In this document: piece after piece, positions 1-30,801 of the stretch
Numbering within the stretch: the first letter of the stretch is position 1
Layout of the letters: every line of letters starts with the position of its first letter
NCBI GenBank assembly: GCA_017746715.1
Contig: JAGHZQ010000041.1
Location: forward strand, 9,219-41,218
DNA length: 32,000 nucleotides
Source: Cyanobacteria bacterium SBLK
Lineage (GTDB): Bacteria > Cyanobacteriota > Cyanobacteriia > Cyanobacteriales > Spirulinaceae
Reading direction: 5' to 3'
Notes under the pieces: generated by a model
Told to the model about the DNA's origin: nothing
Database searches by the model: none
What the model saw: only the letters and a program-made list of their open reading frames with translations
Position numbers and translations under genes: made by a program

Positions 1-3000
1 ATGTCACATCAACAATACTCTTTTTCTCCAAAAAACTGAGAAATTGAGAAGGAATAAAACGTTCGTAAGCAAGATTTAAAGTTTGCAAATTTTCATACAA
101 ACGGGCATTTTCTAAAGAGATGGCAGCTTGAGCGGCTAACATCTGTAACAGTTGCAAGCGATCGCGGGTAAATACTCCCGTCGTCAAATTATTTTCCAAA
201 TAGATAATACCTTTGAGCTTGCTTTGATTGATCAGAGGAATGCAGGCGATAGAGCGACATTGATTCCGTCGAATATAAGGATCGTCGGTAAAATTTCCTT
301 CTTTAGTAGCATTATGCAAAAATACAGTTTCTCGAGTGCGGGCGACATAATGAACGATGCGAGCGGAAATAAGAGAAAAATCTTCTAGAGGGATGGACTC
401 AGAGGCGCTGACCTCAGCAAATTCAGATTCTTTTGTCGCTTCGACGTTTAAGCGATCGCCACGAGATAAGAGCAAAATTCCCCGCTCTGCTCCTGCATTT
501 TCAATGAGACTATTCATTAAAGCTGCCAATAAACTCTCTAAAATAATCTCGCTAGAAATTGCATTGGTTGATTTAATTACCGTGGCTAAATCTAATATCT
601 GACTATCCGTTGCCTCTCGAGTGGCGTGAGGATTTAGACCGATCGGCGTAGAGGTCGATACGCTTGAAGATTGATAGAGTTGCGAATACTTTTCCTCAAG
701 ATGTTTTACTTTAGCAATTGCTCCCCAGCGAGAATAGCAATAATGAGCATTCATCATATAGGCACGAGCGGCTATTTCTTGACCATTCGAACTTCGGCTT
801 CGCTCAGTCGAACACTGAGCCGAGTTGAAGCTCCAATCGAGATAAAATTTAGCAGTCAGCTCATTGGCAAGGGCTTCTTCTTGAATATATTCATTTTCTT
901 TTGCTTTGGCGATCGCCAAATTATAAAATTCAATCGCTTTGACTTTTTCCCCGATCGCTCGATAATATTCAGCTTCCACGAGATAGAACTTATGTAAATA
1001 ATTCATTGGAGCAGAATCCGCCCAACATTTCATTCTTTTTTGATTTTTTTGTACCCCAGATAAGAACGCCTCGCGTTCGTTATTATTGCAGTTTTTGCCC
1101 TCATCGATTGCTGACAGCTGAATCAGGGAATTATAAAAACACCAAACAGGTGTTAAAAGATGAATAGTTGCATCCGTTAAAAATATTTGCGCTGAGGTAC
1201 TGGCAGTCAGTGCTTCCTCAAACTCTTCAAAGAGATAACAAAGAATTGCCTTGGGAACATACACCAACCACTGTCCGTATTTATTATTCGCTTTTTGATA
1301 ATAAGCAATTAATGATTCCTCATTCATTGCTTTGCCAACTAATCGATGGGGATGTTCTGAATATCCCTGTAAATTTAACATGGCTTGCCAACAAGGCCGG
1401 GTATAGTTGAGAGCAGTTTTTTGACCGATCGCTGCCAAGATTTCATTATGACGTTCGATATCTCGTACTGCCTCAGAAAGTTCGCAACCCGTTAAAAAAA
1501 GGAAAAAAGAAGCATGATTGGTGACATAACCGGCATAGGCTAGATCTCCTGTTTCTAAACCCACTCGGCAAGCCTGTCGCAAGGGTTCGATTGCTCCTTT
1601 GGCATGAACCGTCCAATGGCTGAGATGACCGTAAATCACATTTAATACTGCTGCTTCAAATTTTCTTTCGTTGAAGTGAGAAAGAATCTTCAGGGCCAAC
1701 CGAGCATATTCGTAAGCAAGCGCAAATTCTTGAAGAGTGCTAGAGAGAACCATTCCATAAGTTGCATAACTAAATGCAGAAACGGGGGCATTGCCATAGG
1801 TGATGGAAAGTTCGATTTGCTTGCAAACCATGAGAGGAAATAAAGGCGGCCGAAGCTGATAGGTAACGGGAGCTATTTTTACTAAAAGCGTCAATATCTC
1901 GTATAGGAGCGGATCTTGCATGACGGGTAAATTTAAGAGAGCCATGGGTTCGCGATCGCCGATAAGATTCTGAGTTGCTGCAATCGCGATTGCCAAGTCT
2001 TCTGGTGAGGGATCTTGGGGAAATTCGATATCTAAAGCCGCCAAACTCTCTAAACCTGCATTCAGTGCTTCGCTAAATCGTTCTTGATTGCTATAGGCAT
2101 CCAGTTTGATTTTTTCCACTTCTAAGCGATCGCGGTGAGTTTTCGCTTCTTTGGCAACGATTTCCACCAACTTTTCCATCCGTTCGATCTCTGCATTGAG
2201 ATAAGCTGCTTTGGCTGCTTCTTGATAGAGGCTGAGGGTTAATTCATATTGAGTCTGCCAGGGATTTTCTTTTAATAGAGACATTCCGGCATTAAAGTAG
2301 GCGATCGCGGCAGCATAAGCTGTAGCATCTTTGGCTTTGCATCCTGCTTGCCAGTTTAAACGAGCAAATTGTTCTCGTTCCTTTTCATTGCGGACAATAT
2401 CCATGCCTTGATTGAATTGATCGACAATATCAAATATTTTTTCGTCTCGTTCGCTTTCTAAAGTATTGGCTAAGAGAATGCGTCCGATCTCTACATGTTT
2501 TTCTGCTCTTTCTGCTTCAAGAATCAGGGTGTAAGCGGCTTGTTGAATTCGATCGTGGGCGAATTGATAGGATTGAATGAGTAAATTTTCGTCAAGTTCT
2601 GAGAGAGGGAAGATTAGATGGCGATCGAGAGCAATTTTTAAGGATGCGAATATTTTTTGCGGAAAGTCTTTCTCGATCCATGTCAACAATTTTAGATTGA
2701 ATTTTGCACCTAAACAAGCTGCAAGAGATAGTATATTTTGACTGGATTGCGGTAATTTTTTCAGTTCGTCTAGCATCAATTCTACAACATTATCTGTAAA
2801 TTCCCTCGCTTCAATTCTCTCAATATTCCATTGCCATCCTCTCTTTTTAGGACAAAAAGTTACCAATTTCTCGTCATGTAATGCCTGCAAAAACTTGTTA
2901 ACAAAGAAAGGATTCCCCCCTGTTTTTTGTTCGATTAATTCTGCTAAATCTCCCGAATTTTCTGGAGTTTGCTGAAGCGTATCGCCAACTAAACACAAAA

Positions 3001-4585
3001 TTTCCTCAATTGATAGACGCAATAATGTAATTTGATTAATTGCTGCATTCTTTTGTCGGAGTTTTTCCAGAGCAAGCATTAAAGGATGGCTTTTCGAAAC
3101 TTCGTTATCGCGATAAGTTCCTAAAAGCAAAAGATACCGAGTTTGACTTTCAATCAATAGCCTTTCCATTAATTTTAAAGTTACCAAATCAGACCACTGT
3201 AAATCATCGAGAAATAAAGTTAATGGATGCTCTTGACTGCAAAAGACGCGGATAAAATTACCAATAACCAGATTAAAGCGATTTTGTGTTTCATTAGCTC
3301 CTAAAACAGGTACGGGAGGTTGTTTGCCAATAATCAATTCGACTTCAGGAATAACGTCAATGATAATTTGTCCGTTATTTCCCAAAGCCTGTAGAAGTTT
3401 GTTTCGCCATACTTGCAATTTCGACTCATTTTCTCCCAATAATTGCTCCATCAACCCGCGAAAAGCCGAGACGATCGCGGAATAGGGAATATTGCGTTGA
3501 AATTGGTCGAATTTCCCGGCAATAAAATAACCCCGACGGGCTGTAATTGGTTTGTATAGTTCTTGGACTAATGCCGATTTTCCAATCCCAGAATAGCCAG
3601 AAACTAGCATTAATTCGACATTACCCGTTTGGGCGACGCGCTCGAATGCTGCCAGCAACGTTGCAATTTCTGCTTCTCTCCCGTAGAGTTTTTGGGGGAT
3701 ATGAAATCGTTCGCTAATATCTTGACGACCTAAAGCAAAAAAGTCAATTTGACCTTGTTTTTCTAATTGCTGCTGGCAGGTTTCTAAATCTACTTTCAAT
3801 CCATAAGCACTTTGATAACGATCTTCGGCATTTTTTGCCATCAATTTCATGACAATCTGAGAAATAATCGCAGGAATAGATAGCTTGATTTCAGCAGGCG
3901 ATCGCGGAGTTTTAGCAATATGACAGTGAGCTAACTCTAGGGGCTCTTCTGTCGCGAAAGGTCGCTTTCCTGTTAGCAATTCGTAAAAGGTGACCCCCAA
4001 AGAATAAAAATCCGTGCGGTAGTCCAAGCCTCGATTCATTCTTCCGGTTTGTTCTGGAGAAATATAAGCCAATGTGCCTTCTAAAACATTAGGATTTTTT
4101 AAAGTCGGATTTTCTCGATTTAATTGAGTTGAAATTCCAAAATCAATAATTTTGAGTTCTTGAGTTTGAGGATTAACAATCAGATTAGCGGGATTAATAT
4201 CTTTGTGAATAATATTTTGTGCGTGAATTTGTGCTAAACTTTCTGCTATGGCGATCGCGATCGCCAAAAACTCTTTTAAAGACAATGGTTCTCGTTCTTG
4301 CAGCCATTGCTGGAGGGAAATGCCGCCAAAGTCTTCAAGGGCGATGGCATAGCTTCTTTGCCATTCTTCGAGGCGATAGGCTTTAATAATGCCGGGTGCA
4401 TCTAATTGATGAGTGAGGGAATATTCTTGCTTGTAACGACGTATTTGTTCTGGTGTGGGATACTCTCGATTGAGAAATTTGAGAATCACGGGTTGCCCAT
4501 CTTCAACTCGTCGAGCGCGATAGACCTGCGAATTGCTGCTATCGTGAATTTGAAGGAAATTCTCGTATCCGGCAAGAGAGATCAT
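1..4585 (-). CDS. Giant signalling protein, paralog A, 3' end cut by the window edge: Ser/Thr kinase - AAA_16/STAND-type ATPase - helical/TPR region - GAF - first residues of a class III nucleotidyl cyclase
   Basis: Absent from the ORF track because no stop codon lies inside the window. Manual reverse translation from the ATG at 4585 gives [26 protein letters not shown]...VILKFL...HKDINPANL...IDFGIS...AYISPEQ. It continues with LYGREAEI, Walker [12 protein letters not shown], Walker [13 protein letters not shown], and a GAF ([21 protein letters not shown]). It ends ...SLENARLYENLQTLNLAYERFIPSQFLSFLEKKSIVDV, identical to the GAF-cyclase junction of 4637..9958. The track reports no minus-strand ORF of 60 aa or more in 1-4636, which implies this frame stays open to the edge. 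Confidence 0.85.
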   Translation of the reverse strand, partial: MISLAGYENFLQIHDSSNSQVYRARRVEDGQPVILKFLNREYPTPEQIRRYKQEYSLTHQLDAPGIIKAYRLEEWQRSYAIALEDFGGISLQQWLQEREPLSLKEFLAIAIAIAESLAQIHAQNIIHKDINPANLIVNPQTQELKIIDFGISTQLNRENPTLKNPNVLEGTLAYISPEQTGRMNRGLDYRTDFYSLGVTFYELLTGKRPFATEEPLELAHCHIAKTPRSPAEIKLSIPAIISQIVMKLMAKNAEDRYQSAYGLKVDLETCQQQLEKQGQIDFFALGRQDISERFHIPQKLYGREAEIATLLAAFERVAQTGNVELMLVSGYSGIGKSALVQELYKPITARRGYFIAGKFDQFQRNIPYSAIVSAFRGLMEQLLGENESKLQVWRNKLLQALGNNGQIIIDVIPEVELIIGKQPPVPVLGANETQNRFNLVIGNFIRVFCSQEHPLTLFLDDLQWSDLVTLKLMERLLIESQTRYLLLLGTYRDNEVSKSHPLMLALEKLRQKNAAINQITLLRLSIEEILCLVGDTLQQTPENSGDLAELIEQKTGGNPFFVNKFLQALHDEKLVTFCPKKRGWQWNIERIEAREFTDNVVELMLDELKKLPQSSQNILSLAACLGAKFNLKLLTWIEKDFPQKIFASLKIALDRHLIFPLSELDENLLIQSYQFAHDRIQQAAYTLILEAERAEKHVEIGRILLANTLESERDEKIFDIVDQFNQGMDIVRNEKEREQFARLNWQAGCKAKDATAYAAAIAYFNAGMSLLKENPWQTQYELTLSLYQEAAKAAYLNAEIERMEKLVEIVAKEAKTHRDRLEVEKIKLDAYSNQERFSEALNAGLESLAALDIEFPQDPSPEDLAIAIAATQNLIGDREPMALLNLPVMQDPLLYEILTLLVKIAPVTYQLRPPLFPLMVCKQIELSITYGNAPVSAFSYATYGMVLSSTLQEFALAYEYARLALKILSHFNERKFEAAVLNVIYGHLSHWTVHAKGAIEPLRQACRVGLETGDLAYAGYVTNHASFFLFLTGCELSEAVRDIERHNEILAAIGQKTALNYTRPCWQAMLNLQGYSEHPHRLVGKAMNEESLIAYYQKANNKYGQWLVYVPKAILCYLFEEFEEALTASTSAQIFLTDATIHLLTPVWCFYNSLIQLSAIDEGKNCNNNEREAFLSGVQKNQKRMKCWADSAPMNYLHKFYLVEAEYYRAIGEKVKAIEFYNLAIAKAKENEYIQEEALANELTAKFYLDWSFNSAQCSTERSRSSNGQEIAARAYMMNAHYCYSRWGAIAKVKHLEEKYSQLYQSSSVSTSTPIGLNPHATREATDSQILDLATVIKSTNAISSEIILESLLAALMNSLIENAGAERGILLLSRGDRLNVEATKESEFAEVSASESIPLEDFSLISARIVHYVARTRETVFLHNATKEGNFTDDPYIRRNQCRSIACIPLINQSKLKGIIYLENNLTTGVFTRDRLQLLQMLAAQAAISLENARLYENLQTLNLAYERFIPSQFLSFLEKKSIVDVT

Positions 4586-4636
4586 AAATGTTAGGTTGAG
4601 AGAAAAAGGCGGTTATTCTCGTTTTAGCATAAAAAT

Positions 4637-7600
4637 TTAATCGATATACTGTTGACAGCGTTCTAAATAACTGCGAGCAGCCCGATCGCCTTGATGGTAT
4701 TCTAAGCATTGTCTAAATAATTCTGCCGCTTCGATAAATGCTTGCTGGTGAAAGAGAATTGCACCTTTTTCAAAGAGTCCCTTTGAGGCTTTTTTTGCTT
4801 CTCGCAAATCCGGCGAATCCGCAGAAAAGATCTCGAATAAACTCACCGCTTTGGCTTTTCCTTTGGCCGTCACTCGTTCGATAAAACGAAAATCGTACTC
4901 AAAGAAATTTTTTAAACCCAGAAAAGTTTGCTGGGTAATTAAGAGAGAAATACCGTAGGTTTTGGTCAATCCCTCCACCCGCGAAGATAAATTGACCGAA
5001 TCTCCGATCGCCGTCCCATCCATGCGATCTGCTCCCCCGACAGTGCCTAACATTAACCGACCCGCATGCAAACCGATACCGATGCGAAGGGGAACGAGAT
5101 CGGCCTCGATACGAGATAAATTGTAAACTTGCAACTCTTCTAACATGGCGATCGCGGCTTGCAGGGCATCATCGGGAGTATTGCCAAAGAGCGCCATAAT
5201 CGCATCGCCGATATATTTGTCGATAAAACCACCATATTGTTGAATTAGGGGTTCCATACGTCCCAAATAACCGTTAATAAAAGCAAAATTCTCGGCCGGG
5301 GTCATCTGTTCGGAAATGGTGGTAAAATCGCGAATATCGGAGAATAAAACCGTCATTTCTCGCTCTACTTGATCCCCTAAATCTACATCGACAATGCTCT
5401 TTTTCTCCAAAAAACTGAGAAATTGAGAGGGAATAAAACGTTCGTAAGCCAGATTTAAAGTTTGCAGATTTTCATACAAGCGTGCATTTTCTAAAGAGAT
5501 GGCGGCTTGGGCGGCTAACATCTGTAACAGTTGCAAGCGATCGCGAGTAAAAGCCCCAGAGATGAGATTATTTTCAAGATAGATAATACCCTGTAATTTT
5601 CCTTGATTGATGAGGGGAGCGCAGGCGATCGATTGGCATTGATACTGTTGAATATAGGGATCTCCTGCAAATTGACTGTCCTCTTCGGCATCTTGCAAGA
5701 CAACGGTTTTTTGGGTGCGGGCGACATAGTAAACAACTTGATGAGGAATGTCGGATAACTCTTTGAGTGTCGGGACTTCTCCCCCTCGGGCAGGGGAAAC
5801 GATCGCCGTATCGGAATTTGCCTCTTTAATGGCAGCAACAGAGAAGTCGTCGGTTTCCTCCCGAGGGGGATTTGCACTCAGAGATAACAAAATGCCCCGC
5901 TCGGCTCCGGCATTTTCCACGAGAATGTCCATTAACGCTGCCAGTAACTTATCCAACACGATTTCGCTAGAAATCGCACTGGTGGATTTCATGACTGTCG
6001 CGAGGTCTAAAACATCGCTGTTTCGATCTTGTCGGGTCGTGCGCGTTCCTAGAAAATGGGGGGTTTTGGGGGACGATCGCGGTATTTCCCGCTCATTGGC
6101 AGCGAAAAGTTGGGGATATTTCTCCTCGAGCTGCCGAACCTTGGCAATTGCCCCCCAACGCTGACAACAGTAACGCGCTTCCATTGCATAGATGCGAGCG
6201 ATTGGCATTTTGTCCCAGTCGAGATAAAAGCGAGCGGCGAGTTCGTTGGCTAAGGCTTCTTCGTGGAGGTATTCATTTTCTCGCGCCCCAGCAATGGCTC
6301 GATCGTAATACTCGATCGCTAAGGCGCGATCGCCGGCAACGCGAGCCCGTTCGGCTGCCACGAGATAATATTTATGTTGATAGTTCATCGGGGCAAGTTC
6401 GGCCCAATGCTGCAAATCATTTTGATGTTCCGCAATTTCTACCGGTAACGCTTCTGTATCTTCTTCCATGCCAACGACAGCCAAGCGGGCCAAAGCATCG
6501 TAAAAGCGCCAAACGGGAATGAGGGCGTGGCCGATGGCAGCAGATAAGCACTCTCCTGCCGCTTCTCCCGCCGCGATCGCCCCTTGGTGATTGTCAAACC
6601 AATAGGTCAGAATTAATTTTGTAACATAAATCCCCCATAAACCGCTCCCATTTTTCCGGTCTTGATAATAGGCAATCAGTTTTTGCTCGTCCATGACCGT
6701 ACCCGTCAGGCGATCGCTCTGCCGAGCCCGGCCTTGAAAATTCAGCATGGCTTGCCAATAGGGGCGATTGTAATTGAGGGCGGTTTGCTGGCCGATGCCC
6801 TCGAGCAATTCGCTATAGCTTTGCATTTCCCTCACGGCTTCGGAGAGTTCCATGGCCGTCAGAAACAGGCGCAAGCAATACCCTTGGTTGCAATAGCCGC
6901 TATAGGCAAAATCCCCCGTTTCCAGACCAACGGCGAAACCGTGCTGTAAGGGATCGAGGGCTTCTCGCAAATGGATTTGCCAATGGCTGATAAAGCGATA
7001 AACGACCATTAACACCGCCGCTTCAAACTCGCGATCGCTCGAGGCGGCCAAAATATTTAAAGCCAATTGCCCGTACTCGCACCCGAGATGAAATTCCCCT
7101 ACCACACCACAGAGAATCATGCCATAGGCTGCATAGCCAAAAGCAGAAGCCGGGCTATTGCCATAAGTTACGGAGAGTTCCACCTGTTTGAAAACGATGA
7201 GGGGGAACAATAGCGGTGCGGCAAAATAAGTGACGGGAACGATTTTAATCAGTAAAGGGAGAGCAACCCGAGAGAGATCGCCTTCCATGGGGGGCAAGTC
7301 GAGCAAATCTCGAGGTTGGCGATCGCCAATGAGGGTTTTGGTTTTGGCCAAAGCGGGGGCTATATCTCCTCGGGAAACTTCTCGAGGAAATTCGATGCCC
7401 AAAGAAGAGAGCATCTCCAAACCGACGGCTAAGGCCTCCACCACGCGATTTTGATTGGTGTAAGCATCCAGTTTGATTTCGCAGATATCCCCGCGATCGC
7501 TCTGGGTTTTCGCCCGAGGGATGGCAATGGCGGCCAGTTCTTCCATGCGCTGGATATCTGCGTTAAAATAGCTGGCTTTGACGGCTTCGCAATGAAGGCC

Positions 7601-9958
7601 GAAGGCGAGGGCATATTGATTTTCCCAACAATCTGGGGGTAGGAGTTGAATGCCGATATCCAAATAGGCGATCGCGGTTGCGTAAGCGGCGGTGAGATTG
7701 GCTTTGCGTCCGGCTTGCCAATTGAGACGGGCGAGGGTTTGCCGCTCTTTGGTATCGACAATGAGGGCAATGCCGCGATTGAGGCGATCGACGATATCGA
7801 AGAGCTTTTCTTCTCGTTCTCCCTCGGTAACGCGCTCCAAGAGCAGGCGGCCGATTTGCAGGTTGACGGCGGGGCGTTCTTCTAGAGGAATGAGGGTATA
7901 GGCGGCCTGTTGAATGCGATCGTGGTTGAATTGATAGGCTTGGATGAGTAAATTTTCGTCGAGTTGGGAGCGAGGGGAAATAATGCCGCGATCGAGGGCA
8001 ATTTTTAAATCCCGAAAGAGGATTTTGCGGGGTTGAGAACTCACTAAAGTTAAAGTGCTCAGGTCAAACTCCGCCCCCAAACACGCTGCAAGGGATAAGA
8101 TGCGTTGGGTTGATGGGGGGAATTTTTGCAGTTTGCCCACCATCAATTCCACCACGCTATCGCTCAATTCTATGGCTTCGATCGCGGCAAGATCCCATTG
8201 CCAACATCGAGAAGGGCGATGGAACATTAAAAGATTTTCATCATACAATTCTTTTAAAAATTCATTGATAAAGAAAGGATTGCCTTCTGTTTTTCGCAGG
8301 ACTAATGTCGCTAGAGCTTTTACGGTTTTCGGTGGAGATTGCAGGGTTTCGCCAATTAACTGGGTAATTTCGTCAATTTTAAGATTACCGAGGAAGATAC
8401 GAGCCAATGCTTGCTCTTTTTGTTGCAGTCGTTCGAGGGTAATGAGGAGGGGATGCCCCGAGGATACCTCATTATCTCGATATGCCCCCAATAGTAAAAG
8501 ATATTGCGTTTGGCGATCTTCGAGCAATCGTTCTACTAATTTCAGCGTCGCCAAGTCCGACCATTGCAAATCGTCGAGGAAGAGGGTTAAGGGATGTTCC
8601 GAACTGCAAAAGGCGCGCATGAAGTTCCCAAAAACAAGATTAAAGCGATTTTGCGACTCGTTTGTCCCCAATGTGGGAACGGCCGGTTGTTTCCCGATAA
8701 TCAGTTCGACTTCGGGAATGACATCAATGACGATCTGACCGTTATTTCCCAACGCCCGTAACAGTTTTTCGCGCCATACTTGCAATTGGGATTCGGTTTC
8801 GCCTAACAGTTGTTCGATTAATCTGCGAAAGGCACTGACGATGGCGGAATAGGGAACATTGCGTTGAAATTGATCGAATTTCCCGGCAATAAAATAGCCT
8901 CGACGGACGGTAATGGGTTTGTATAGTTCTTGGACTAATGCCGATTTTCCAATGCCGGAATAACCGGAAACAAACATTGCCATCACCTGCCCCGTATTGG
9001 CAACTGTTTCAAAGCCGTCAATTAACTTGGCAATTTCTACTTCTCTACCGTAGAGTTTTTGGGGAATTTGAAAGCGATCGCTAATATCTTGACGGGCGAG
9101 GGGAAAAACAGCAATTTCTCCTGTCGATTTCAATTGCTGCTGACAGCGTTCTAAATCAGCTTTTAATCCATCAACGCTTTGATAGCGATCCTCGGCATTT
9201 TTCGCCATTAATTTGAGAACAATTTCTTGTAAGGTTGAGAAAATTTTGAATTTTGAATTTTGAATTTTGAATTGAGCGGGTGGTTTGGCAATGTGAGCGT
9301 GAACTAATTCCAAAACATCTTCAGTTGGGAAGGGTAAGTTTCCCGTCAGCAGCTCGTAAAAAGTCACGCCTAAAGAATAAAAATCCGTGCGATAGTCCAG
9401 ACCGCGATTCATTCTCCCTGTTTGTTCTGGGGAAATATAAGCTAATGTTCCTTCTAAAACATGAAGGTTCTTCAATGTGGGATTTTCTCGATTTAGCTGT
9501 GTGGCAATCCCAAAATCAATGATTTTCAGTTCTTTGGTTTCGGGATTCAAAATAATATTGGCGGGATTAATATCTTTATGAATAATCTTTTGGGCGTGAA
9601 TCTGTCCCAAACTTTCGGTTGTCGCGATCGCGATTTCCAAAAATTCTTCTAAGGTCAATTTTTTCCGTTTCTGCAACCATTGCTGAAGAGAAAGTCCGCC
9701 AAAATCTTCGAGGACAATTGCATAACTTCTCTGCCATTCTTCGAGACTGTAGGCTTTAATGATTCCGGGGGCATCTACGCGACAAGTAAGGTAATATTCT
9801 TGCTTGTAACGGCGAATTTGTTCTGAAGTCGGGTAATCGCAATCGAGAAATTTGAGAATGACGGAGGTGCGATCGCTAATTCTCCAAGCGCGGTACACTT
9901 GCGAACTAGTGCTATGGTGAATTTTCAGAAAATTCTCGTATCCGGCAAGAGCAATCAT
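4637..9958 (-). CDS. Giant signalling protein, paralog B: Ser/Thr kinase - AAA_16/STAND ATPase - helical/TPR - GAF - class III (IIIb-like) adenylate cyclase - short TPR-like tail
   Basis: 1773-aa ORF. Kinase motifs: [28 protein letters not shown]. ATPase motifs: LYGREVEI then Walker [12 protein letters not shown] and Walker [16 protein letters not shown]: [21 protein letters not shown]...SLENARLY. The cyclase maps to about nt 4830-5365, with metal-binding Asp in VLFSDIRDF and IGDAIMALF and Asn/Arg in GDSVNLSSRVE. The substrate Lys (IDKYIGD) is paired with Thr (GTAIGD), as in class IIIb adenylate cyclases such as Anabaena CyaB1 (recalled from memory). The C-terminal helical tail is GAILFHQQAFIEAAELFRQCLEYHQGD. 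Confidence 0.95.
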   Translation of the reverse strand: MIALAGYENFLKIHHSTSSQVYRAWRISDRTSVILKFLDCDYPTSEQIRRYKQEYYLTCRVDAPGIIKAYSLEEWQRSYAIVLEDFGGLSLQQWLQKRKKLTLEEFLEIAIATTESLGQIHAQKIIHKDINPANIILNPETKELKIIDFGIATQLNRENPTLKNLHVLEGTLAYISPEQTGRMNRGLDYRTDFYSLGVTFYELLTGNLPFPTEDVLELVHAHIAKPPAQFKIQNSKFKIFSTLQEIVLKLMAKNAEDRYQSVDGLKADLERCQQQLKSTGEIAVFPLARQDISDRFQIPQKLYGREVEIAKLIDGFETVANTGQVMAMFVSGYSGIGKSALVQELYKPITVRRGYFIAGKFDQFQRNVPYSAIVSAFRRLIEQLLGETESQLQVWREKLLRALGNNGQIVIDVIPEVELIIGKQPAVPTLGTNESQNRFNLVFGNFMRAFCSSEHPLTLFLDDLQWSDLATLKLVERLLEDRQTQYLLLLGAYRDNEVSSGHPLLITLERLQQKEQALARIFLGNLKIDEITQLIGETLQSPPKTVKALATLVLRKTEGNPFFINEFLKELYDENLLMFHRPSRCWQWDLAAIEAIELSDSVVELMVGKLQKFPPSTQRILSLAACLGAEFDLSTLTLVSSQPRKILFRDLKIALDRGIISPRSQLDENLLIQAYQFNHDRIQQAAYTLIPLEERPAVNLQIGRLLLERVTEGEREEKLFDIVDRLNRGIALIVDTKERQTLARLNWQAGRKANLTAAYATAIAYLDIGIQLLPPDCWENQYALAFGLHCEAVKASYFNADIQRMEELAAIAIPRAKTQSDRGDICEIKLDAYTNQNRVVEALAVGLEMLSSLGIEFPREVSRGDIAPALAKTKTLIGDRQPRDLLDLPPMEGDLSRVALPLLIKIVPVTYFAAPLLFPLIVFKQVELSVTYGNSPASAFGYAAYGMILCGVVGEFHLGCEYGQLALNILAASSDREFEAAVLMVVYRFISHWQIHLREALDPLQHGFAVGLETGDFAYSGYCNQGYCLRLFLTAMELSEAVREMQSYSELLEGIGQQTALNYNRPYWQAMLNFQGRARQSDRLTGTVMDEQKLIAYYQDRKNGSGLWGIYVTKLILTYWFDNHQGAIAAGEAAGECLSAAIGHALIPVWRFYDALARLAVVGMEEDTEALPVEIAEHQNDLQHWAELAPMNYQHKYYLVAAERARVAGDRALAIEYYDRAIAGARENEYLHEEALANELAARFYLDWDKMPIARIYAMEARYCCQRWGAIAKVRQLEEKYPQLFAANEREIPRSSPKTPHFLGTRTTRQDRNSDVLDLATVMKSTSAISSEIVLDKLLAALMDILVENAGAERGILLSLSANPPREETDDFSVAAIKEANSDTAIVSPARGGEVPTLKELSDIPHQVVYYVARTQKTVVLQDAEEDSQFAGDPYIQQYQCQSIACAPLINQGKLQGIIYLENNLISGAFTRDRLQLLQMLAAQAAISLENARLYENLQTLNLAYERFIPSQFLSFLEKKSIVDVDLGDQVEREMTVLFSDIRDFTTISEQMTPAENFAFINGYLGRMEPLIQQYGGFIDKYIGDAIMALFGNTPDDALQAAIAMLEELQVYNLSRIEADLVPLRIGIGLHAGRLMLGTVGGADRMDGTAIGDSVNLSSRVEGLTKTYGISLLITQQTFLGLKNFFEYDFRFIERVTAKGKAKAVSLFEIFSADSPDLREAKKASKGLFEKGAILFHQQAFIEAAELFRQCLEYHQGDRAARSYLERCQQYID
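9243..9270. repeat. Four perfect tandem copies of a heptanucleotide (ATTTTGA; TCAAAAT on the coding strand) inside paralog B
   Basis: The plus strand reads aa-attttga-attttga-attttga-attttga-attgagc. On the minus strand this encodes QFKIQNSKFKIF in the kinase C-lobe. Confidence 0.9.
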
Positions 9959-10043
9959 GAAAAGTTGAATGGAAAAAAAGAAAGAAAGCTATTCTCTAAC
10001 AATAATCTAGACATTTAGTAACTGCGGGATTTGACCGGCTACT

Positions 10044-13000
10044 CTATTGTAACTCTTCAAGGAGTTGCCGAATGAGATCGAGTTGAAAGTCATCGACTAA
10101 GTTCGTCAGGCAATCGGCTAAAGATGCTTGACTTGCAGGGATTTCTCGAATGAGTGCCAAAATTGCCTCATCATCTAGGATTTCGCTGGCTTTATACATT
10201 CGTTTCTGCCATTCTAACGGCATCACTTGTAAATCGGACAATTGCAAAGGAGAATATTGCTTTTCTTCTTTTCGTTCTGCTTCATCATAAATATATTCAA
10301 TCCCTAAATACTTGCTGAGGATCTCAAAAATCTCCACTTCTCGAAAGGGTTTCTTGAGAAAATCATCGCATCCAGCTAACAAGGCGCTCGCCTTTTCTCG
10401 TTCCAATACGCTCGCCGTTAAGGCAATAATAATGGTGTCTTTTCCTTCTGGTTTGGCTTTAATGGTTCGCGTCGCCTCATAACCATCCATTTCGGACATT
10501 CTCATGTCCATAAAAATCAGATGCGGATGCCAGTTTTCCCATTGAGCGATCGCTTCTCGTCCGTTACTCGCTTCCCGCAAGTCGAAGCCGAGGGGTTGCA
10601 ACAATTTGACCAATAATAAACGATTTTCGGACCGATCGTCGGCGATGGCAATTTTGTAGTGTGGCTGTCCGGGTTTGAGAGCAATGACTCGGCGAGAATT
10701 GCGATCGGATTCTACCTCCGCTCTATCCACAAGCGTGGCATTAATATTAAAAGTCATGGCCGTTCCTTCACCAACCTGACTGCGAACGGCAATTTCTCCT
10801 CCCATCAATTGCACGAATTTTTGCGAGATTGGCAGCCCCAACCCCGTTCCTTCTTGAGTTTGTCGACCGCTCTGAGTTTGAGCAAAGGCCTCAAAGAGTT
10901 TCCCTATCTCTTCTTCGGCAATCCCCATTCCCGTATCTCGTACTTCAAATATGATTTGTTGTTGGCATTGCCCCGAGCTTGTCGAAGGGTTGTTTTTTTT
11001 CCCTCCCTTACGAAGGGGGGTTAGAGGGGATTGGCAATGGGTGACTGTTACTGAAATGCCGCCTTCTGATGTGAATTTAATACTATTGTTGATGAGATTC
11101 AGTAAGACCTGACGCAGTTTGGTTTTATCGGTGCAGATATATTGCGGGACGTTTTCTTGCCATGCGAACAGCAGTTTTAATCCTTTAGTTTCAGCTTTGA
11201 GCTGCAATAAACCTTCGACTTCTGTCAATAAAGCATAAAGATCGAAAGGAGCGATCGCGAGGGTCATTTTCCCTGCTTCGATTTTCGATAAATCTAAAAC
11301 ATTGTTGATTAACGTCAGCAAATAATCGCCGCTACGATTGATAATATTGAGATTATCTCGGTGTTTGGGCGGCAAATCGCCGTCGCGGATGGCAATTTGC
11401 GAAAAACCTAAAATCGCGTTTAAGGGGGTTCGCAATTCGTGGCTCATATTGGCTAAAAACTCGCTTTTGGCTTGGTTGGCGCGATCGGCAGTTTCTTTAG
11501 CTTGTTGCAGTTGAGCGGTGCGCTCTTCAACTTTGCTTTCGAGGGTGCGAGAATGCTCTTCGAGTTGGTTATAGAAACGTGCATTTTCGAGGGAAATGGC
11601 GGCTTGAGTGGCGAGGGTTTGCAATAATGCCATGCGTTCTTGACTAAATGCCCTCATGCTAAGATTGTTTTCTAGATAGATAATCCCTTGTAATTTTCCT
11701 TGATTAATAAAGGGAATACAGGCAAGAGAATAACATTGATTTTGTTGAATATAAGCATCCTCGGTAAAGTTGCCCGTACGGACGGCATCATCTAAAAACA
11801 CGGCTTCTCGGGTGCGAGTGACATAGCGAACAATACTGAGTGGAATGGCGTGAAATTTTTCTAGAGGAATGTCTTGCAGGGCGATCGCTTTTTCCGATTC
11901 TGTTTCTTGGGTTGCTGCAACCACTAAATTTTCTCCTCTCGACAGAAGTAAAATTCCTTTCTGCGCTCCGGCGTTTTCGACAAGAATATTCATTAAAGCC
12001 GAGAGTAAGCGATCGAGAAAAATTTCGCTAGAAATGGCTTGAGTGGCTTTGATAACTGAAGCTAGATCCAGATTTTTGCTGCTTTTTGAGGTACTGGTCG
12101 TTGGCGTTATTTTCGCCTTTTTTGGTGAGGTTGAATCTGGTGTTTCTGTAAAAGAAAATAGATGGGAATATTTTTCTTCGAGATGTTTGACCTTGGCGAT
12201 CGCGCCCCAGCGTTGATAGCAATAATGAGCTTCTTTTAAATACAAACCGGCAATGTTTTCTTTCCCGTTCGGTCGAGCACAGTCGAGACTCCAATTAAGA
12301 TAAAATTTAGCAGCAATTTCGTTAGCGAGGGCTTCTTCTTGGATGTATTTGTTTTCTCTGGCTCCGGCGATCGCGCGATCGTAATAATCCATTGCTTTGA
12401 CTTTTTCCCCCAAGACTCGATAATATTCTGCCTCGACAAGATAGAATTTATGTAAATAGTTCATGGGAGCGGATTCTGCCCAACGCTTTAGCTTCTTTTG
12501 ATTTTCTCGAACCTCATTTAAAGTATTCCGATCTATTGTTTCAGGACGCATTAATTTGATTAAAGAATAATAGCAATAAAATAGAGGAAATGACGGACTT
12601 TTCATAGGATTAAGTAAAATCCCTTCTCTCTCGATCGCTATCACGAGGGATTCGTTAAAATCTTCAAATAAATAACACAGAATTGCTTTTTGAAAATAGA
12701 TATTGTGCAACACGGTATTATTGTTATTATTTTGACACTCTAAAATCAATGAATCTTCATCCATTGCCAAACCTGTGAGATGATAGGGGGATGCCGATTT
12801 TCCTTGTAAATTTAAAACTGTTTGCCAATATATTTGTATAAGATCTAGAGAAACTTTTTGGCCGACTTCCTTAAATATTTTACAGTATCGTTCGATTTCT
12901 CGTTCCACTTCAGATAATTCGCAACCGCTTAAATAAAGCTGAATGCAATAACTACTACCAAGATGGCCGCTATAAGCTAAATCCCCGATTTCTAAACCAA

Positions 13001-16000
13001 ATGTAAAACCTTGCTGTAATGAATTAAATGCCTCGTTGATGTGATTTTTCCAATGATGGATAAAATAATAAACGAGCAAGAAAATGGAAGGTTTAAATTT
13101 TCGATCGTCAAACTGGGCAAGAATATCTAAGGCCAATTGGCCGTATTCATAACCGAGAGAAAAATCGTTCCCGATCTCACATAAAATCATGCCATAGTTT
13201 GCGTAGCTAAAGGCAGAAGCAGGTGTATTGCCATAAATGATTGAAAGTTCGAGGGTTTTGAAAACCGCAAGGGGATACAAAGCAGGTTTGGTAAAATAAA
13301 TCGCCGGTGCAATCTTCACTAAAAGCACTAATGCCTCGCGTATCAGATCGTTTTGCATTTTAGGTAAATTGGCAAAGTCGGTCGGTTGACGATCGCCAAT
13401 TAATCCTTGTATTTCGCCGAAAGCGTTGACAAAATCCTCTTGAGAGGGTTGGGATGGAAACTCAATTCCCAAATTTTGTAAAGCCTGCAAAGCCACATCG
13501 AGGGCTTCTAGCAATCGCACTTGATTGGTATAAGCATCAACTCTAATTTGTGCCAATTTGAGGCGATCGCGAGGCGTTTTTGCTTCTCGATCGATAATCG
13601 TTGCAAATGCTTCCATGCGTTCGATCTCTGCATTGAGATAAGTGGCTTTCATCACTTCTTGATATAGCTCGAGGGTTAGTTCGTATTGAGCGTCCCAACG
13701 ATTCGCCTCGAGTAGAGAGATGCCCGTCTCAAAATAGGAGATCGCTGCTCCGTAAGCATTGGCTGCTCTCGCTTTGCATCCTGTCTGTAGATTTAAGCGA
13801 GTGATAGTTTCTCGCTCTTGAGAAGTCGTGAATAAGGTAAGGCCGCGATTGAGGAGATCGACAATATCAAAGAGTTTTTCTTCGCGATCGCCCTCTGGAA
13901 TCTTTTCTAAAAGAATGCGCCCGATCGCCACATTTTTCTCGGCTTTATCTGCTTCGGGAATGAGGGCATAGGCCGCTTGTTGAATGCGATCGTGGGCAAA
14001 TTTACACGACTGAATCAGTAAGTTTTCATCTAATTCCGATATGGGAACGATAACGTTGCGATCGAGAGCCATTTTTAACGACTCAAACACTTCTTGCGGC
14101 GATCGCTTGACAATCCATGTCAGGGTTGTTAAATCGAACTCGGATCCCAAACAAGCAGCAAGGGATAAGATTTCGCGATCGCCTTGCGGTAATTGTTGTA
14201 GCTTTTCGACCATCAACTCAACCACGTTATCCGTGAAATTTCTGGCAGCGATCGCTTCAATATCCCATTGCCATCTCCTCGCTTTAGTTTCAAAGTTTAG
14301 TAAGTTTTCGGCATACAAAGCCTGTAAAAACTCATTTACAAAGAAAGGATTACCTTCAGTTTTCTCTTGCAATAATTGCGTCAATTTTCTCACTTCATTG
14401 AAGGTTCGTCCGAGAGTATCGCTTATCAAGTTGCCAATCTCAGAAAGCTGCAAAGGATTGAGGCGAACTTGCACGAATGTTGCTTGATGCTGTCGGAGTT
14501 TTTCGAGAGAAAGGTGCAAAGGATGACTGCGCGATATTTCGTTATCTCGATAGGCTCCCAACAGCAATAACGATTCAGTTTGAGCATCCGTTAATAATCT
14601 TTCCATTAGTATTAAAGTTGCCGAGTCTACCCATTGCAGATCGTCGAGAAATAAGGTTAAGGGATGTTCTTTTTGACAAAATACGCGCATAAAATTGCCA
14701 ATTGTCAAATTAAAGCGATTCCGTGCTTCATTTGCTCCTAACTCGGGTAGGGGAGGTTGTTTGCCAATAATCAGTTCGACTTCGGGGATGACATTAATAA
14801 TGACTTGCCCATTATTACCTAATGCTTCCAGTAATTTGTTTTTCCAGACTTGCAATTGTACTTCGCTTTCTCCCAATAATTGCTCGATTAAACCTCGAAA
14901 CGCCGCTACGATCGCAAAATAGGGAATATTGCGTTGAAATTGGTCGAATTTTCCCGAAATGAAATAGCCTCGATGTGCTGTAATGGGTTTGTATAATTCT
15001 TGGACGAGGGAAGATTTACCAATTCCCGAATATCCCGCGACTAAGATGAGTTCTACTTTTCCCGTATCGGCAACTCTCTGAAAAGCGGTTAATAGAGTTT
15101 CGATTTCTTTTTTTCGTCCATAGAGTTTCTGCGGAATTTGCAAGCGATCGCTAATATCTTGACTGGCTAAGGAAAATGAAAGAATGTCTCCAGTTGAGTT
15201 TAATTGCTGCCAACAATATTCTAGGTCGGCTTTTAATCCCCAAGCACTTTGATAGCGATCTTCTGCATTTTTTGCTATCAATTTCATGACAATGTTAGTC
15301 AGAGGGGTGGGGACTTGAGAGTCGGGAATGGGAGGGGAGGGTTTGGCAATATGACAGTGAATCAATTCCAGCATATCTTCAGTCAGAAAAGGGAACATTC
15401 CCGTCAGCAGTTCGTAAAAAGTAATGCCTAAAGAATAAAAATCCGTACGATAATCCAAGCCTCGATTCATTCTTCCGGTTTGTTCTGGGGAAATATAAGC
15501 GAGGGTTCCTTCTAAAACATTAGGATTTTTCAAGGTAGGATTTTCTCGGTTGAGTTGGGTCGAAATTCCAAAATCAATAATTTTCAGTTCTTTAGTTTCG
15601 GGATTAAAAACTATATTGGCAGGATTGATATCTTTATGAATAATATTTTGGGCGTGCACTTGTCCCAAACTTTCAGTAATGGCGATCGCTAATTGCAAAA
15701 ACTCTTTGAGAGAGAGTTTGTCGCGTTGTTTCTGCCATTTTTTGAGGGAAATGCCGCCAAAGTCTTCAAGGACGATCGCGTAGCTTCTCTGCCATTCTTC
15801 GAGACTGTAGGCTTTAATAATCCCCGGAGCATTTAACTGGCAAGTGAGATAATACTCTTGCTTATAGCGGCGAATCTGCTCTGACGAAGGATAATCGCAA
15901 TTGAGAAATTTGAGAATGACGGGGGTGCGATCGCTCGTTCGCTTGGCGCGATAGACTTGCGAGTTACTGCTGTTGTGGATTTGCTGGAGCTCCTCGTAAC

Positions 16001-16016
16001 CTGTCAGAGAAACCAT
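10044..16016 (-). CDS. Giant signalling protein, paralog C (HstK-like): Ser/Thr kinase - AAA_16/STAND ATPase - helical/TPR - GAF - HisKA - HATPase_c - receiver - helical C-terminal tail
   Basis: 1990-aa ORF whose first roughly 1400 aa are collinear with paralogs A and B ([61 protein letters not shown]). After the GAF come a coiled coil and the H-box [12 protein letters not shown] (His codon about 11439-11441). These are followed by N-box [10 protein letters not shown]1 DTGMGI and G2 GTGLGLPIS. The receiver reads IADDRSENR...[11 protein letters not shown] (Asp codon about 10506-10508)...KKPF. Confidence 0.95.
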
Positions 16017-16172: not shown

Positions 16173-16694
16173 TTATCTTTCAATGGCCAAGTGCCACTCT
16201 AATACGACTGCGGCGGGAATTTGCAAGGCGATCGCGCGATCGTTTTTCATCTTTAATAAGAATTGTACCGATGCCAATTGTGGCAATTTTGGTAATATTT
16301 CTTTGAAGTCAAATTCTCCGACGTTATCCGCCGAAGATTGCGGGGAAAAAATATCTTCGGCGGATAATACTTGTCCGGTAGAGACAAAGATTTTTAAAGC
16401 GCGATCGCGATCGAATGCAGCAACGTCGGGGAAACCCACCAAACGCAAATGCACGGGAGTTTCTTCGCGATTTTTTTCTCGTTTAAAGAGAATAACTTGC
16501 CAAGGTTCTCCAAATTCATCCCGCAAGGTATGGCGAGATTGATAGAGCATTTGGCCGGGGGCTTCTTCCATCTGATAAACTGCGGCTGTTGCGTGAGGAA
16601 TTGTTCCCCAACTCAACATTAATAGTCCGATAATCAAGCTGAGAATTAGCGATCGCCATAATAATGAGAGTCTCATTTTGCTCCTCCTTTGCAT
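16173..16694 (-). CDS. Small secreted protein of unknown function, DUF3122-like
   Basis: 173-aa ORF with a signal peptide (MRLSLLWRSLILSLIIGLLMLSWGTIPHATA). The mature part (YQMEEAPGQMLYQSRHTLRDEFGEPWQVILFKR...LRLVGFPDV) resembles the cyanobacteria-restricted DUF3122 family as I remember it. This needs an HMM check. Confidence 0.7.
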   Translation of the reverse strand: MQRRSKMRLSLLWRSLILSLIIGLLMLSWGTIPHATAAVYQMEEAPGQMLYQSRHTLRDEFGEPWQVILFKREKNREETPVHLRLVGFPDVAAFDRDRALKIFVSTGQVLSAEDIFSPQSSADNVGEFDFKEILPKLPQLASVQFLLKMKNDRAIALQIPAAVVLEWHLAIER

Positions 16695-17306: not shown

Positions 17307-17515
17307 TGTTCGGATTATTTGTATCTATTTAACTAAGTAATAATATAGCATTATATTGAATGAAAAGCTAGTTTTAGAAGCGCGATCGCATTTTTTATTC
17401 TCAATGTTAAGCTCCCGATATAAAAAGAAAACTCGGCGACTCATTTATCCCCGAATTATCGGCAATTCTCGGTGGATCTTGTTTAAACTGAGGGAGAAGT
17501 TTGAGAAAAAAACCG

Positions 17516-17968
17516 ATGGATCCAATCACTGCGATCGCGACTCTTGCTGCGACAAAATTTGTTGAAACGGGTGCCGAAAAACTGGCAGGGGGAACTTTAG
17601 AGATAATCAACCGACTGCGAGAGAAGATTTGGCAGAAGTTGCGGGGAAAACAGGAGTTGGAGAAAGTCTTACAGGAGGCGAAAGATGGGGCTCCTTTTGC
17701 TTTGGAGCAAGTTGCGGGTTATTTGGATGCGGCAATGAAGGAGGATAGGGTTTTTGCGGAGGAAGTGAGAGAGGAGATTGAGGAAGCAATGAAAGAGAAT
17801 GAGACTTTTGCGAGGGAGATCGGCGATCGCGCTCGAGAGATTTTTAATATTGACACGGTTGAGGGACAAAATCAGATTATTGGCGATCGTGGGATTCAAA
17901 ATCCAACGAGATCGGTAATTGTTGAGAATAATCCCGGCACTATTATCATTAACGAAAAACCCGATTGA
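17516..17968 (+). CDS. Helical N-terminal domain ORF ending in an N/Q/G/I-rich strand motif; probably the detached 5' part of the downstream NB-ARC/TPR gene
   Basis: The track ORF 17501..17968 starts at a TTG. An ATG at 17516 lies behind a purine-rich GAGGGAGAAG. The protein reads MDPITAIATLAATKFVETGAEKLAGG..., then charged helices, then VEGQNQIIGDRGIQNPTRSVIVENNPGTIIINEKPD. It ends at TGA 17966-17968 and is in the same frame as 18104..20245. Confidence 0.6.
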   Translation: MDPITAIATLAATKFVETGAEKLAGGTLEIINRLREKIWQKLRGKQELEKVLQEAKDGAPFALEQVAGYLDAAMKEDRVFAEEVREEIEEAMKENETFAREIGDRAREIFNIDTVEGQNQIIGDRGIQNPTRSVIVENNPGTIIINEKPD

Positions 17969-18103
17969 CTGAACTCGTCGGCATCGAAACCGATTCAACA
18001 ACATTCGCACATTCCCAATAATATCAGGCGCACTCCCTCGAACAAGTTTTTTGGTCGGGATAAAGATTTAGAGAAGATTCACGAGAAATTAAAGCAGGGT
18101 GAT

Positions 18104-30072: not shown

Positions 30073-30526
30073 TTTTCAGTATCTTGATAATGTTGAAGTT
30101 GGCCGCAAAATCGATCGCTTGAAAATCATCTAAATTCTTTAATTTGGCATCGGCATTCATCGCCAAAAGTGCCCTCACCATCTCGGTTTTACCTGCCGAG
30201 GACGCATACATTAACGCCGTTGCCCCGTTATCATTCTGGTTGTCGCAGTTGATGCCTGCTTCGACCAATAGTTCGATCAGATCGTAGCGATCGCGAAAAC
30301 AAGCGAACCATAAGGCATTGTTGCCGTCGTTATTTCTCGCATTCAACAAGGCTCCGGCTCGAATCAGCGATCGCGCGGTTTCCAATTCTCCTTCCCGCGT
30401 TGCCTGCATCAGAGCCGTATCGCCATTTTCCCCTGGCTGCTCTAGATTATTAGCATCGAATCCCCGCACCTGCAACCAATTTTCGAGAATCGGATCGATG
30501 CGATCGCGAACAGATACTTGACTCAT
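30059..30526 (-). CDS. Ankyrin-repeat protein (about 3-4 ANK repeats)
   Basis: ANK consensus: GDTALMQATREGELETARSLIRAGALLNARNNDGNNALWFACFRDRYDLIELLVEAGINCDNQNDNGATALMYASSAGKTEMVRALLAMNADAKLKN. The track ORF starts at the TTG at 30559. I prefer the ATG at 30526 (MSQVSVRD...). Confidence 0.85.
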   Translation of the reverse strand: MSQVSVRDRIDPILENWLQVRGFDANNLEQPGENGDTALMQATREGELETARSLIRAGALLNARNNDGNNALWFACFRDRYDLIELLVEAGINCDNQNDNGATALMYASSAGKTEMVRALLAMNADAKLKNLDDFQAIDFAANFNIIKILKNVTV

Positions 30527-30801
30527 GGTATTTTTGTAATATTGAAATCGGCTATCCAAATGTTGTCGGGGATGGCCGCGGACTTTACCAGTTTAGAATG
30601 AGAAAAAAATGGATTCGCGATCGCTATTAACCCCCTACTCAGTGGCGAGAATTGAATTGGGGCAAGGATTGGAACATTGCGATCGGGTGAGGGAATGAGA
30701 ATTTACTAGATACTGTCTCTCTCTCGCTATTTCTGGGCGCTACAGAGAGGGGATAAAAATGCGATCGCGCTTTTCAATTCTCACCGTGTATTGCGTCCGC
30801 T

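Follow-up and report, generated by a model that had tools for sequence, protein, structure and literature searches.

What kind of system is encoded by three giant multidomain genes that lie in tandem in a 32,000-nucleotide (nt) stretch of DNA from Cyanobacteria bacterium SBLK (the window; assembly GCA_017746715.1, contig JAGHZQ010000041.1, positions 9,219 to 41,218)? An earlier reading of the sequence alone (the original prediction) had described these genes, here called A, B, and C, as kinase-STAND-TPR-GAF paralogs with different catalytic outputs, and had raised the idea of a diversifying conflict or immune system. A, B, and C are paralogous members of the cyanobacterial HstK, or cbSTKIII "dual protein kinase," family. 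In the preferred explanation, to which we give a probability of roughly 0.7, they rest on a STAND scaffold of the MalT type and act as large cytoplasmic sensors of several inputs, most likely in ordinary cytoplasmic signaling.

Open reading frame (ORF) calls in the window placed the three giant ORFs in tandem, in the order C, B, A, all on the minus strand. This confirmed the predicted co-directional paralogs with their 51- and 85-nt spacers. Lengths are given in amino acids (aa).

10044..16016, minus strand: gene C, 1990 aa; kinase, AAA_16 STAND NTPase, helical repeat, GAF, HisKA, HATPase_c, receiver, and C-terminal tail
9959..10043, minus strand: C-B spacer, 85 nt
4637..9958, minus strand: gene B, 1773 aa; kinase, AAA_16, helical repeat, GAF, and class IIIb adenylate cyclase (predicted)
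4586..4636, minus strand: B-A spacer, 51 nt
<1..4585, minus strand: gene A, 1528 of 1772 codons inside the window; 3' end beyond the window edge

Membership of the HstK family

A full-length search with B returned at least 8000 matches, whereby members from Nostoc, Oscillatoria, and Microcoleus were 45-66% identical over 85-100% of B. The best 120 of these at least 8000 matches share at least the kinase, AAA_16, and GAF domains; most have cyclase ends, and a few end in a histidine kinase or AAA_35. Represented among these 120 are Okeania, Symploca, Spirulina, Microcoleus, Coleofasciculus, Oscillatoria, Planktothrix, and Nostoc. PAS-bearing relatives were also seen among the matches (P0025 and P0085). 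When 5.8 billion proteins were searched, no relative closer than 66% identity was obtained for B, 70% for A, or 83% for C. The HstK-like assignment of the original prediction was correct, as could be seen from full-length homology to cyanobacterial family members, the Hanks-type kinase head, and the GAF domain. Judged by its domain content, gene C is an HstK-type hybrid histidine kinase.

With the STAND-helical core alone as the query, 11,933 clusters (50% identity) were found at E <= 1e-30 and 66,064 at E <= 1e-3. In most of the best 150 clusters listed, the core match begins at about residue 290, leaving space for an N-terminal domain of kinase size. These 150 differ widely in total length (~1100 to 3169 aa); from this spread, many kinds of C-terminal output are to be expected. 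The scaffold also extends beyond cyanobacteria: it was found in Colwellia and Burkholderiales genomes, and 228 plasmids or chromids carry it, among them 74 of Rhizobium and 52 of Pantoea. Six contigs of a viral collection (IMG/VR, L022-L027) encode distant STAND-helical relatives of weak identity (23-33%), and the scan of viral contigs gave no sign of close relatives carried by phage.

The HstK, or dual kinase, family has been known since 2001, the year of the HstK paper by Phalip et al. The cbSTKIII "dual protein kinases" have been defined with alr2258 as HstK, and 38 were counted in filamentous nitrogen-fixing strains (PMC2176072). In the same report, the adjacent genes alr0709 and alr0710 (Pkn40/41) are co-transcribed and regulated by iron and NtcA, and Tery_2857, with its GAF and cyclase domains, falls inside the cbSTKIII kinase cluster; domain shuffling is documented there too. 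NIES39_A07100 is an HstK-like protein in which the histidine kinase is replaced by an adenylate cyclase (PMC2853384). On these precedents, both output swapping and tandem pairs were already described. The earlier claim that a triple array with output swapping was not a described unit is therefore not supported, and mixed arrays of two to four members were found in other cyanobacteria. No mechanistic study of a full-length HstK-type member was found in the literature searched.

Domain organization and catalytic residues

Pfam searches of A, B, and C gave strong matches for Pkinase (E 7e-37 to 2e-39), AAA_16 (E 1e-38 to 1e-40), and, between kinase and output, GAF (E 1e-13 to 1e-18). Guanylate_cyc was matched in B (E 9e-17), and HisKA, HATPase_c, and Response_reg in C (E ~1e-23 each), for which NCBIfam matches were obtained too. 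The HisKA/HATPase module is found in C, and A and B have Guanylate_cyc instead. The predicted split of outputs, cyclase in A and B and HisKA-HATPase-receiver in C, was thereby seen inside the window for B and C, whereas the cyclase of A lies outside it and was confirmed only via the full-length product (P0003; 1772 aa, on the same 238-kb contig), which ends in a PF00211 cyclase. The domains of each gene are as follows.

15147..16016, minus strand: C kinase head, residues 1-290; K36, alpha-C Glu, HKD, DFG, and SPE intact
14562..15128, minus strand: C AAA_16 NTPase, residues 297-485; Walker A GYSGIGKS, Walker B LFLDDL
12057..14561, minus strand: C helical arm and TPR-like region (putative, by homology to B; without Pfam match), residues ~486-1320
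11583..12017, minus strand: C GAF, residues 1334-1478; Pfam
10740..11471, minus strand: C HisKA and HATPase_c, residues 1516-1759; H-box SHELRTP; N, G1, and G2 boxes present
10317..10652, minus strand: C receiver, residues 1789-1900; Pfam and motif DMRMSEMDG
10044..10316, minus strand: C C-terminal tail, residues ~1901-1990; ~85-90 aa after the receiver
9089..9958, minus strand: B kinase head, residues 1-290; Gly-loop IHHSTSSQVYRA
8492..9058, minus strand: B AAA_16 NTPase, residues 301-489; Pfam, motifs, Foldseek
5999..8491, minus strand: B helical arm and TPR-like sensor (predicted; AlphaFold2 model and Foldseek), residues ~490-1320
5486..5956, minus strand: B GAF, residues 1335-1491; Pfam
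4850..5362, minus strand: B class III cyclase catalytic domain, residues 1533-1703; FSDIRDFT, DKYIGDA, DGTAIGDSVNLSSR
3716-4585, minus strand: A kinase; Pfam
3125-3691, minus strand: A AAA_16; Pfam
581-3124, minus strand: A helical repeat (predicted)
107-541, minus strand: A GAF; Pfam
1-106, minus strand: A linker toward the cyclase, start only; cyclase domain past the window edge

For the kinase heads, a combination of motif scanning and alignment was used. All three retain the VILK Lys, the alpha-C Glu, HKD, DFG, and SPEQ, and alignment to PknB showed conservation of Lys, Glu, HxD, and DFG. The Gly-rich loop has no glycine; its positions are occupied by H14, S16, and S19 (Pfam Pkinase profile positions 8, 10, and 13, ungapped register). 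The original prediction was correct on all of these residues. A glycine-less loop is the consensus of the HstK family, I[HY]xSxNSxVYR[AG], with glycine-less variants even in proteobacterial members; it is a hallmark of the family and not peculiar to this locus.

The Walker A (GYSGIGKS) and Walker B (LFLDDL) motifs are intact in A, B, and C. The cyclase motifs FSDIRDFT, DKYIGDA, and DGTAIGDSVNLSSR were found in B and in full-length A, and the metal Asp, Lys/Thr, and Asn/Arg residues are present. On alignment, these motifs correspond position by position to those of CyaB (3r5g) and OaPAC, both class IIIb adenylate cyclases, and on the basis of the Lys/Thr pair ATP is predicted as the substrate. 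The outputs of A and B are thus predicted class IIIb adenylate cyclases. In C, the H, N, G1, and G2 boxes and the receiver Asp are all intact. The C-terminal tail of C matches no Pfam or NCBIfam model and, being without histidine, is not an Hpt domain. A continuous helix appears to connect the GAF domain with the output, which is of an obligately dimeric kind; the helical GAF-cyclase linker is predicted from sequence.

Predicted structure of the middle region

No Pfam TPR model matches the 600-800 aa middle region of A, B, or C, and a phmmer search with the middle region of B against the sequences of the PDB returned nothing even at E <= 1. A profile of full-length homologs run against the PDB was swamped by kinase and cyclase matches, and the middle region was resolved only by structure modeling with Foldseek. 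Residues 281-1330 of B were modeled with AlphaFold2 from a 40-sequence alignment, giving a mean predicted local distance difference test score of 81, with most of the helical part above 90. Against the PDB, the best Foldseek match of this model was the archaeal STAND-TPR protein 6mfv (PH0952; E 1.4e-8); further matches were ORC/Cdc6 AAA+ modules, the plant NLR NRC2, Dark, and TPR proteins. Domain III of MalT (1hz4) matched with a TM-score of 0.63, normalized to the target.

These values support, at the level of a predicted fold, a nucleotide-binding oligomerization domain (NOD), made up of a nucleotide-binding domain and a helical/winged-helix arm, followed by a TPR-like repeat sensor in B and, by homology, in C; a region of this kind is predicted for A as well. 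The TIGR03903 kinase/cyclase fusion model of NCBIfam matches the NOD region. Of the kinase-STAND-TPR-GAF scaffold that had been proposed, the kinase, AAA_16, and GAF parts were recovered by Pfam; the TPR part has no Pfam TPR match and is seen in the predicted structure only.

Conservation of the locus in other genomes

The nearest genome in the collections is a metagenome-assembled genome (MAG), "Cyanobacteria bacterium P01_E01_bin.42" (L001), in which the same locus is present. There, a gene for an ArsR-family helix-turn-helix (HTH) protein and a DUF3122 gene are followed by four family genes in the order histidine kinase, histidine kinase, cyclase, cyclase. In the window, ArsR and DUF3122 are followed by histidine kinase, cyclase, cyclase, i.e. 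three copies versus four. The two upstream genes are as follows.

16173..16694, minus strand: DUF3122 gene, 156 nt upstream of C; same position in L001
16941..17306, minus strand: ArsR/SmtB-family HTH regulator gene, upstream of DUF3122; same position in L001

Their counterparts in L001 (508-1429) are 83% identical for ArsR, with a ratio of nonsynonymous to synonymous substitution rates (dN/dS) of 0.16, and 71% identical for DUF3122 (dN/dS 0.24). This conserved ArsR-DUF3122-array order hints at a regulatory or functional link. The three giant genes probably lie in an operon, downstream of the ArsR-family regulator and DUF3122 genes. No promoter-like or terminator-like consensus was found on the coding strand of the C-B spacer. 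Over the consensus scans as a whole, promoter and terminator counts equaled the shuffled expectation, with none inside either spacer, and are uninformative on co-transcription.

Arrays were found at 4 of ~22 loci sampled. One metagenomic contig (L002; JGI 3300001596, 3786-21502) carries four tandem members whose outputs are AAA_35, cyclase, AAA_35, and PAS-cyclase. The AAA_35 ATPase-like output, present in two members there (P0071), was also seen in P0058 and P0061 from Symploca. Just upstream on the same contig (2519-3452), a decayed copy has left three short pieces, one of kinase (84 aa), one helical (163 aa), and one of AAA_35 (103 aa). Okeania SIO3I5 carries a cyclase-cyclase pair. Single family genes in unrelated contexts were found in Spirulina CCY15215, at eleven Oscillatoriales loci (ten of them Microcoleus), in a Prochlorotrichaceae MAG, and at proteobacterial loci; the closest relatives of A (P0004 and P0006) are likewise single genes in unrelated contexts.

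On two plasmids, Fischerella NIES-4106 plasmid2 (L028, 2651-9364) and Nostoc ATCC 53789 pNsp_a (L029, 14128-20717), there is one HstK-type histidine kinase gene, directly after which come a LuxR-family response regulator and a series of SDR, thioredoxin/DsbA, GST, and hydrolase genes. An HstK-type sensor may thus control a conserved regulon for redox and detoxification functions, and the HstK-LuxR arrangement has the look of an ordinary two-component sensor.

Sequence evolution of the array

Over the scaffold, A, B, and C share 55-63% aa identity. The kinase and NTPase heads are 72-89% identical among the paralogs and the sensors 30-60%, so that diversification is concentrated in the sensor region. 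For gene C, selection could be readily followed: C and L001g2 (P0059) are clear orthologs, 85% identical, with a synonymous rate (dS) of 0.47 and a dN/dS of 0.19. In 150-codon windows dN/dS lay between 0.11 and 0.37, and the sensor windows (0.11-0.29) were not elevated. C is under uniform purifying selection.

For A and B, the scaffolds are 53-61% identical to L001g3 and L001g4, no closer than the paralogs are to each other. Over the cyclase cassette (the last ~260 residues of full-length A), however, A and B agree at 94% of positions, and the match to the cassettes of L001g3 and L001g4 is 81-85%. Among paralogs, and between A or B and the L001 cyclase genes, dS was 1.4-2.4 or undefined, i.e. 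saturated, and the resulting ratios (0.15-0.22) were not relied on. The original prediction had set a diversifying reading against that of a conserved syntenic triad under uniform purifying selection. What was found is divided: the ArsR-DUF3122-array locus is conserved and dN/dS along C is uniform, but copy number is three versus four, and A and B are without one-to-one orthologs.

Between A and B, one tract stands out.

1..305, minus strand: A/B shared 3' tract, a likely gene-conversion tract, from the GAF C-terminus onward; ~83-93% DNA identity; B copy at 5385-5684

Within this tract dS is 0.54 and dN 0.04, and just upstream dS exceeds 1.3; on these rates the tract likely arose by gene conversion. 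A mildly lowered dS among paralogs was also observed for the kinase heads.

Base composition was then considered by GC content at third codon positions (GC3). The center of B (codons 391-1440) has a GC3 of 0.525 versus 0.40-0.43 at the ends of B (chi-square p = 4e-6), and the same part of A and C has 0.34-0.38. Gene B is mosaic. The HIP1 octamer, GCGATCGC, occurs 84 times in the window versus 0.8 expected and is spread over all genes; by this abundance, the window is recognizable as part of the chromosome of a cyanobacterium rich in HIP1. Transfer of the B center from outside the cyanobacteria was considered and, in this form, rejected, as HIP1 density in this GC3-rich center is similar to that elsewhere in the window. 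If there was a donor, it was another cyanobacterium rich in HIP1; otherwise, the segment is a resident of long standing. Neighbor-joining trees built per segment are incongruent: the kinase heads of the four-member metagenomic array (L002) cluster together, and L001g3 switches partners between segments.

Taken together, the array is read as an old duplication with later gene conversion, most clearly on the cyclase cassette, and with sensor segments replaced by recombination. Mildly new is the contrast between a cyclase cassette that has been homogenized between A and B and kept from one genome to another, and sensor scaffolds that are mosaic or have been replaced. This birth-and-death, or mosaic, pattern is the sole feature that leans toward the diversifying idea, and domain shuffling had already been inferred for the family (PMC2176072).

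Proposed mechanism

Domain order, catalytic residues, and the predicted fold come from the analysis above; the dynamic steps that follow are modeled on MalT-like STANDs, GAF-cyclases (CyaB1/CyaB2), and histidine kinases. A putative cytoplasmic ligand or partner would bind the repeat sensor and/or the GAF domain and relieve autoinhibition. The NTP-bound STAND module would then self-associate, which would bring the kinase heads together for trans-phosphorylation. Self-association would also set the dimer register of the C-terminal helix and so switch cAMP synthesis in A and B or the His-Asp phosphorelay in C on or off. The heads are conserved and the sensors divergent; the three copies most likely report different inputs into two output currencies.

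Several points weigh against this account. The sensor ligand is postulated by analogy, and oligomerization is extrapolated from other STAND proteins. The kinase may be weak or inactive, all three P-loop glycines being replaced. Co-transcription is suggested solely by short spacers, a common strand, and the lack of terminator-like sites, and the consensus scan did no better than chance. On the evolutionary side, there is one syntenic comparator genome (L001) only, in which A and B have no clear orthologs; selection on A and B is not measurable because dS is saturated; and the per-segment trees carry no support values. Lastly, the neighbors of the array include an NB-ARC-TPR gene and a TPS-CHAT gene, which is a point in favor of an immune role.

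As a discovery the locus is incremental, since the family, the cyclase variant, and tandem pairs are published and no evidence for a new kind of system was found. It does offer a clean natural experiment: within a single locus, one type of head and NTPase is coupled to two different outputs, both dimeric, and the breakpoint at the GAF/output helix is clear. This junction could guide the design of chimeras and tests of STAND control over a cyclase or a histidine kinase.

Alternative explanations

A first alternative is that the tandem arrangement has no function: the three would be independent sensors set side by side by duplication, and their homogenization a passive result of proximity. We regard this as possible but doubtful. 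It fits the single-gene contexts of the closest relatives of A and of many others, the small share of sampled loci that carry arrays, the age of the paralogs (dS >= 1), and the difference in array size between two syntenic genomes. It accounts less well for spacers of 51 and 85 nt on one strand and for an order, histidine kinase first and cyclases last, that is kept in two genomes. The published co-transcription of alr0709/alr0710 (PMC2176072) also speaks against it, as does the cyclase cassette, which was kept at the locus (81-85% identity) while the scaffolds changed.

The N-terminal kinase could instead be an ATP-binding regulatory (pseudo)kinase, like the kinase-homology domain of animal receptor guanylyl cyclases, so that each protein would have one catalytic output. 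The replacement of all three P-loop glycines (H/S/S) is conserved family-wide, including in proteobacterial members, and no part of the paralogs is better conserved than the head, as would be expected of a structural or regulatory module; moreover, no report of HstK-family kinase activity was found in the literature searched, which left out the original HstK paper. Nonetheless, the beta3 Lys, alpha-C Glu, HKD Asp, Asn, and SPE are kept in all copies and in most relatives inspected, which is unusual for pseudokinases, and only in four distant relatives was the DFG or HxD pattern unmatched. PknB, an active kinase, likewise has Ser in place of the third Gly, and the Pkinase model is matched strongly (E ~1e-39). 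On balance, a pseudokinase is unlikely.

It is also conceivable, although we think it improbable, that the array forms a co-assembling STAND "signalosome," in which mixed oligomers would form via the conserved heads, the varied repeat and GAF sensors would jointly gate cAMP and the His-Asp phosphorelay, and the locus would keep its output cassette while swapping sensor scaffolds by recombination. If true, the array would be a repertoire of modular receptors that can be exchanged, perhaps to recognize non-self or to read the state of the cell in a filamentous organism.

Very unlikely, finally, is a STAND-based immune or conflict system in which diversifying TPR-like sensors would detect invaders and the kinase and cyclase would act as effectors, by abortive-infection phosphorylation or a cyclic-nucleotide alarm. 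The tripartite head-NOD-repeat layout is shared with defense STANDs, and the modeled structure is similar to NLR-type NRC2 and Dark. The sensor region is the most divergent part, copy number differs between genomes, one array has decayed fragments, and there are signals of mosaic recombination. NB-ARC-TPR and TPS-CHAT gene types are often discussed as components of conflict systems; here, however, neither neighbor is tied to the array by operon structure or conserved synteny, and neither is shown in the available L001 sequence.

PADLOC kinase models (PD-T4-6, mad6, MkoA, and Stk2) and PycC matched only generic domains, the former at residues ~5-315 and the latter on the cyclase at ~1530-1665. 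No PADLOC match was obtained on the NTPase/STAND or sensor regions with the Avs, bNACHT, Pycsar, PD-T4-6, MADS, or Mokosh models. The ortholog pair of C is uniformly under purifying selection, its sensor included. Outputs are classical signaling modules, a class IIIb adenylate cyclase and a hybrid histidine kinase with receiver; Pfam detected no effector of the nuclease, protease, TIR, or pore-forming kind. The Lys/Thr pair of the cyclase is adenine-specifying, as in housekeeping adenylate cyclases. Published reports on the family concern nitrogen- and iron-dependent expression under NtcA, and 38 dual kinases reported (PMC2176072), together with ~12,000 clusters (50% identity), fit a general sensor scaffold. 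Single-copy relatives pair with ordinary response regulators. In the broad surveys of STAND and conflict systems that were searched, no passage describing the HstK family was found. The conflict grammar of the original prediction thus received no positive support, and ordinary cytoplasmic signaling by HstK-type sensors remains the preferred reading.

Neighboring genes

Other genes in the window were recorded as side observations. A 155-aa helical ORF (17501..17968, plus strand), without a Pfam match, is in frame with the NB-ARC-TPR ORF (18104..20245, plus strand). The two are parted by a single stop at 17966-17968, and the stretch between them (FFGRDKDLEKIHEKL...) is a normal NB-ARC start. Positions 17501-20245 look like one ~900-aa STAND gene broken by a stop, i.e. 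a candidate pseudogene, sequencing error, or read-through.

The TPS-CHAT gene (20455-24255, minus strand) encodes a 1266-aa protein with an N-terminal TPS/filamentous-hemagglutinin secretion domain and a C-terminal CHAT (caspase-like) protease domain, and its stretch has a higher GC content (~0.50-0.52). A gene for a SagB-type (TOMM/RiPP-like) dehydrogenase (28762..30072, minus strand) has a 14-nt overlap with the end of the upstream 166-aa ankyrin-repeat gene (30059..30559, minus strand).

Comparison with known systems

Like Avs, bNACHT, and Pycsar, the three proteins combine a STAND core, a repeat sensor, and an enzymatic N-terminal domain, and the cyclase is homologous to PycC at the domain level. 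Unlike these systems, A, B, and C have neither a defense-model match on the NTPase or sensor nor a toxic effector, C is under purifying selection, and the cyclase residues are of the adenine type.

MalT-type STANDs, such as E. coli MalT and PH0952, share with A, B, and C the AAA_16 Walker A and B motifs and, according to the model, a helical arm and a C-terminal TPR/SUPR-like sensor. They differ in output: A, B, and C have no DNA-binding output but an enzymatic head, with GAF-cyclase or GAF-histidine kinase after the repeats. M. tuberculosis PknK and AAA_16-containing cyclases are themselves MalT-type STAND NTPases.

With the GAF-cyclases (Anabaena CyaB1/CyaB2, P. aeruginosa CyaB, and Spirulina CyaC), A and B have in common a GAF domain before a class IIIb catalytic domain and conserved catalytic pairs. 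Unlike these cyclases, they have a single GAF, placed after a kinase-STAND scaffold of ~1300 aa; inspection of this GAF by eye only revealed no obvious cyclic nucleotide-binding signature. NIES39_A07100 and Tery_2857 resemble A and B in their Ser/Thr kinase head, GAF, and class III cyclase. NIES39_A07100 has an extra PAS domain, which A and B lack, and both were reported as single genes, not arrays.

The HstK/cbSTKIII proteins (alr2258 and alr0709/alr0710) are exactly like gene C in having a Hanks kinase, a long middle region, GAF, and HisKA/HATPase, although in the older HstK papers the middle region is not described as an AAA_16/STAND NTPase. Also shared with this family are the many paralogs per genome, adjacent co-transcribed pairs, and domain shuffling. 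Unlike alr2258 and alr0709/alr0710, A and B have a cyclase in place of the histidine kinase, and the array comprises three members with mixed outputs.

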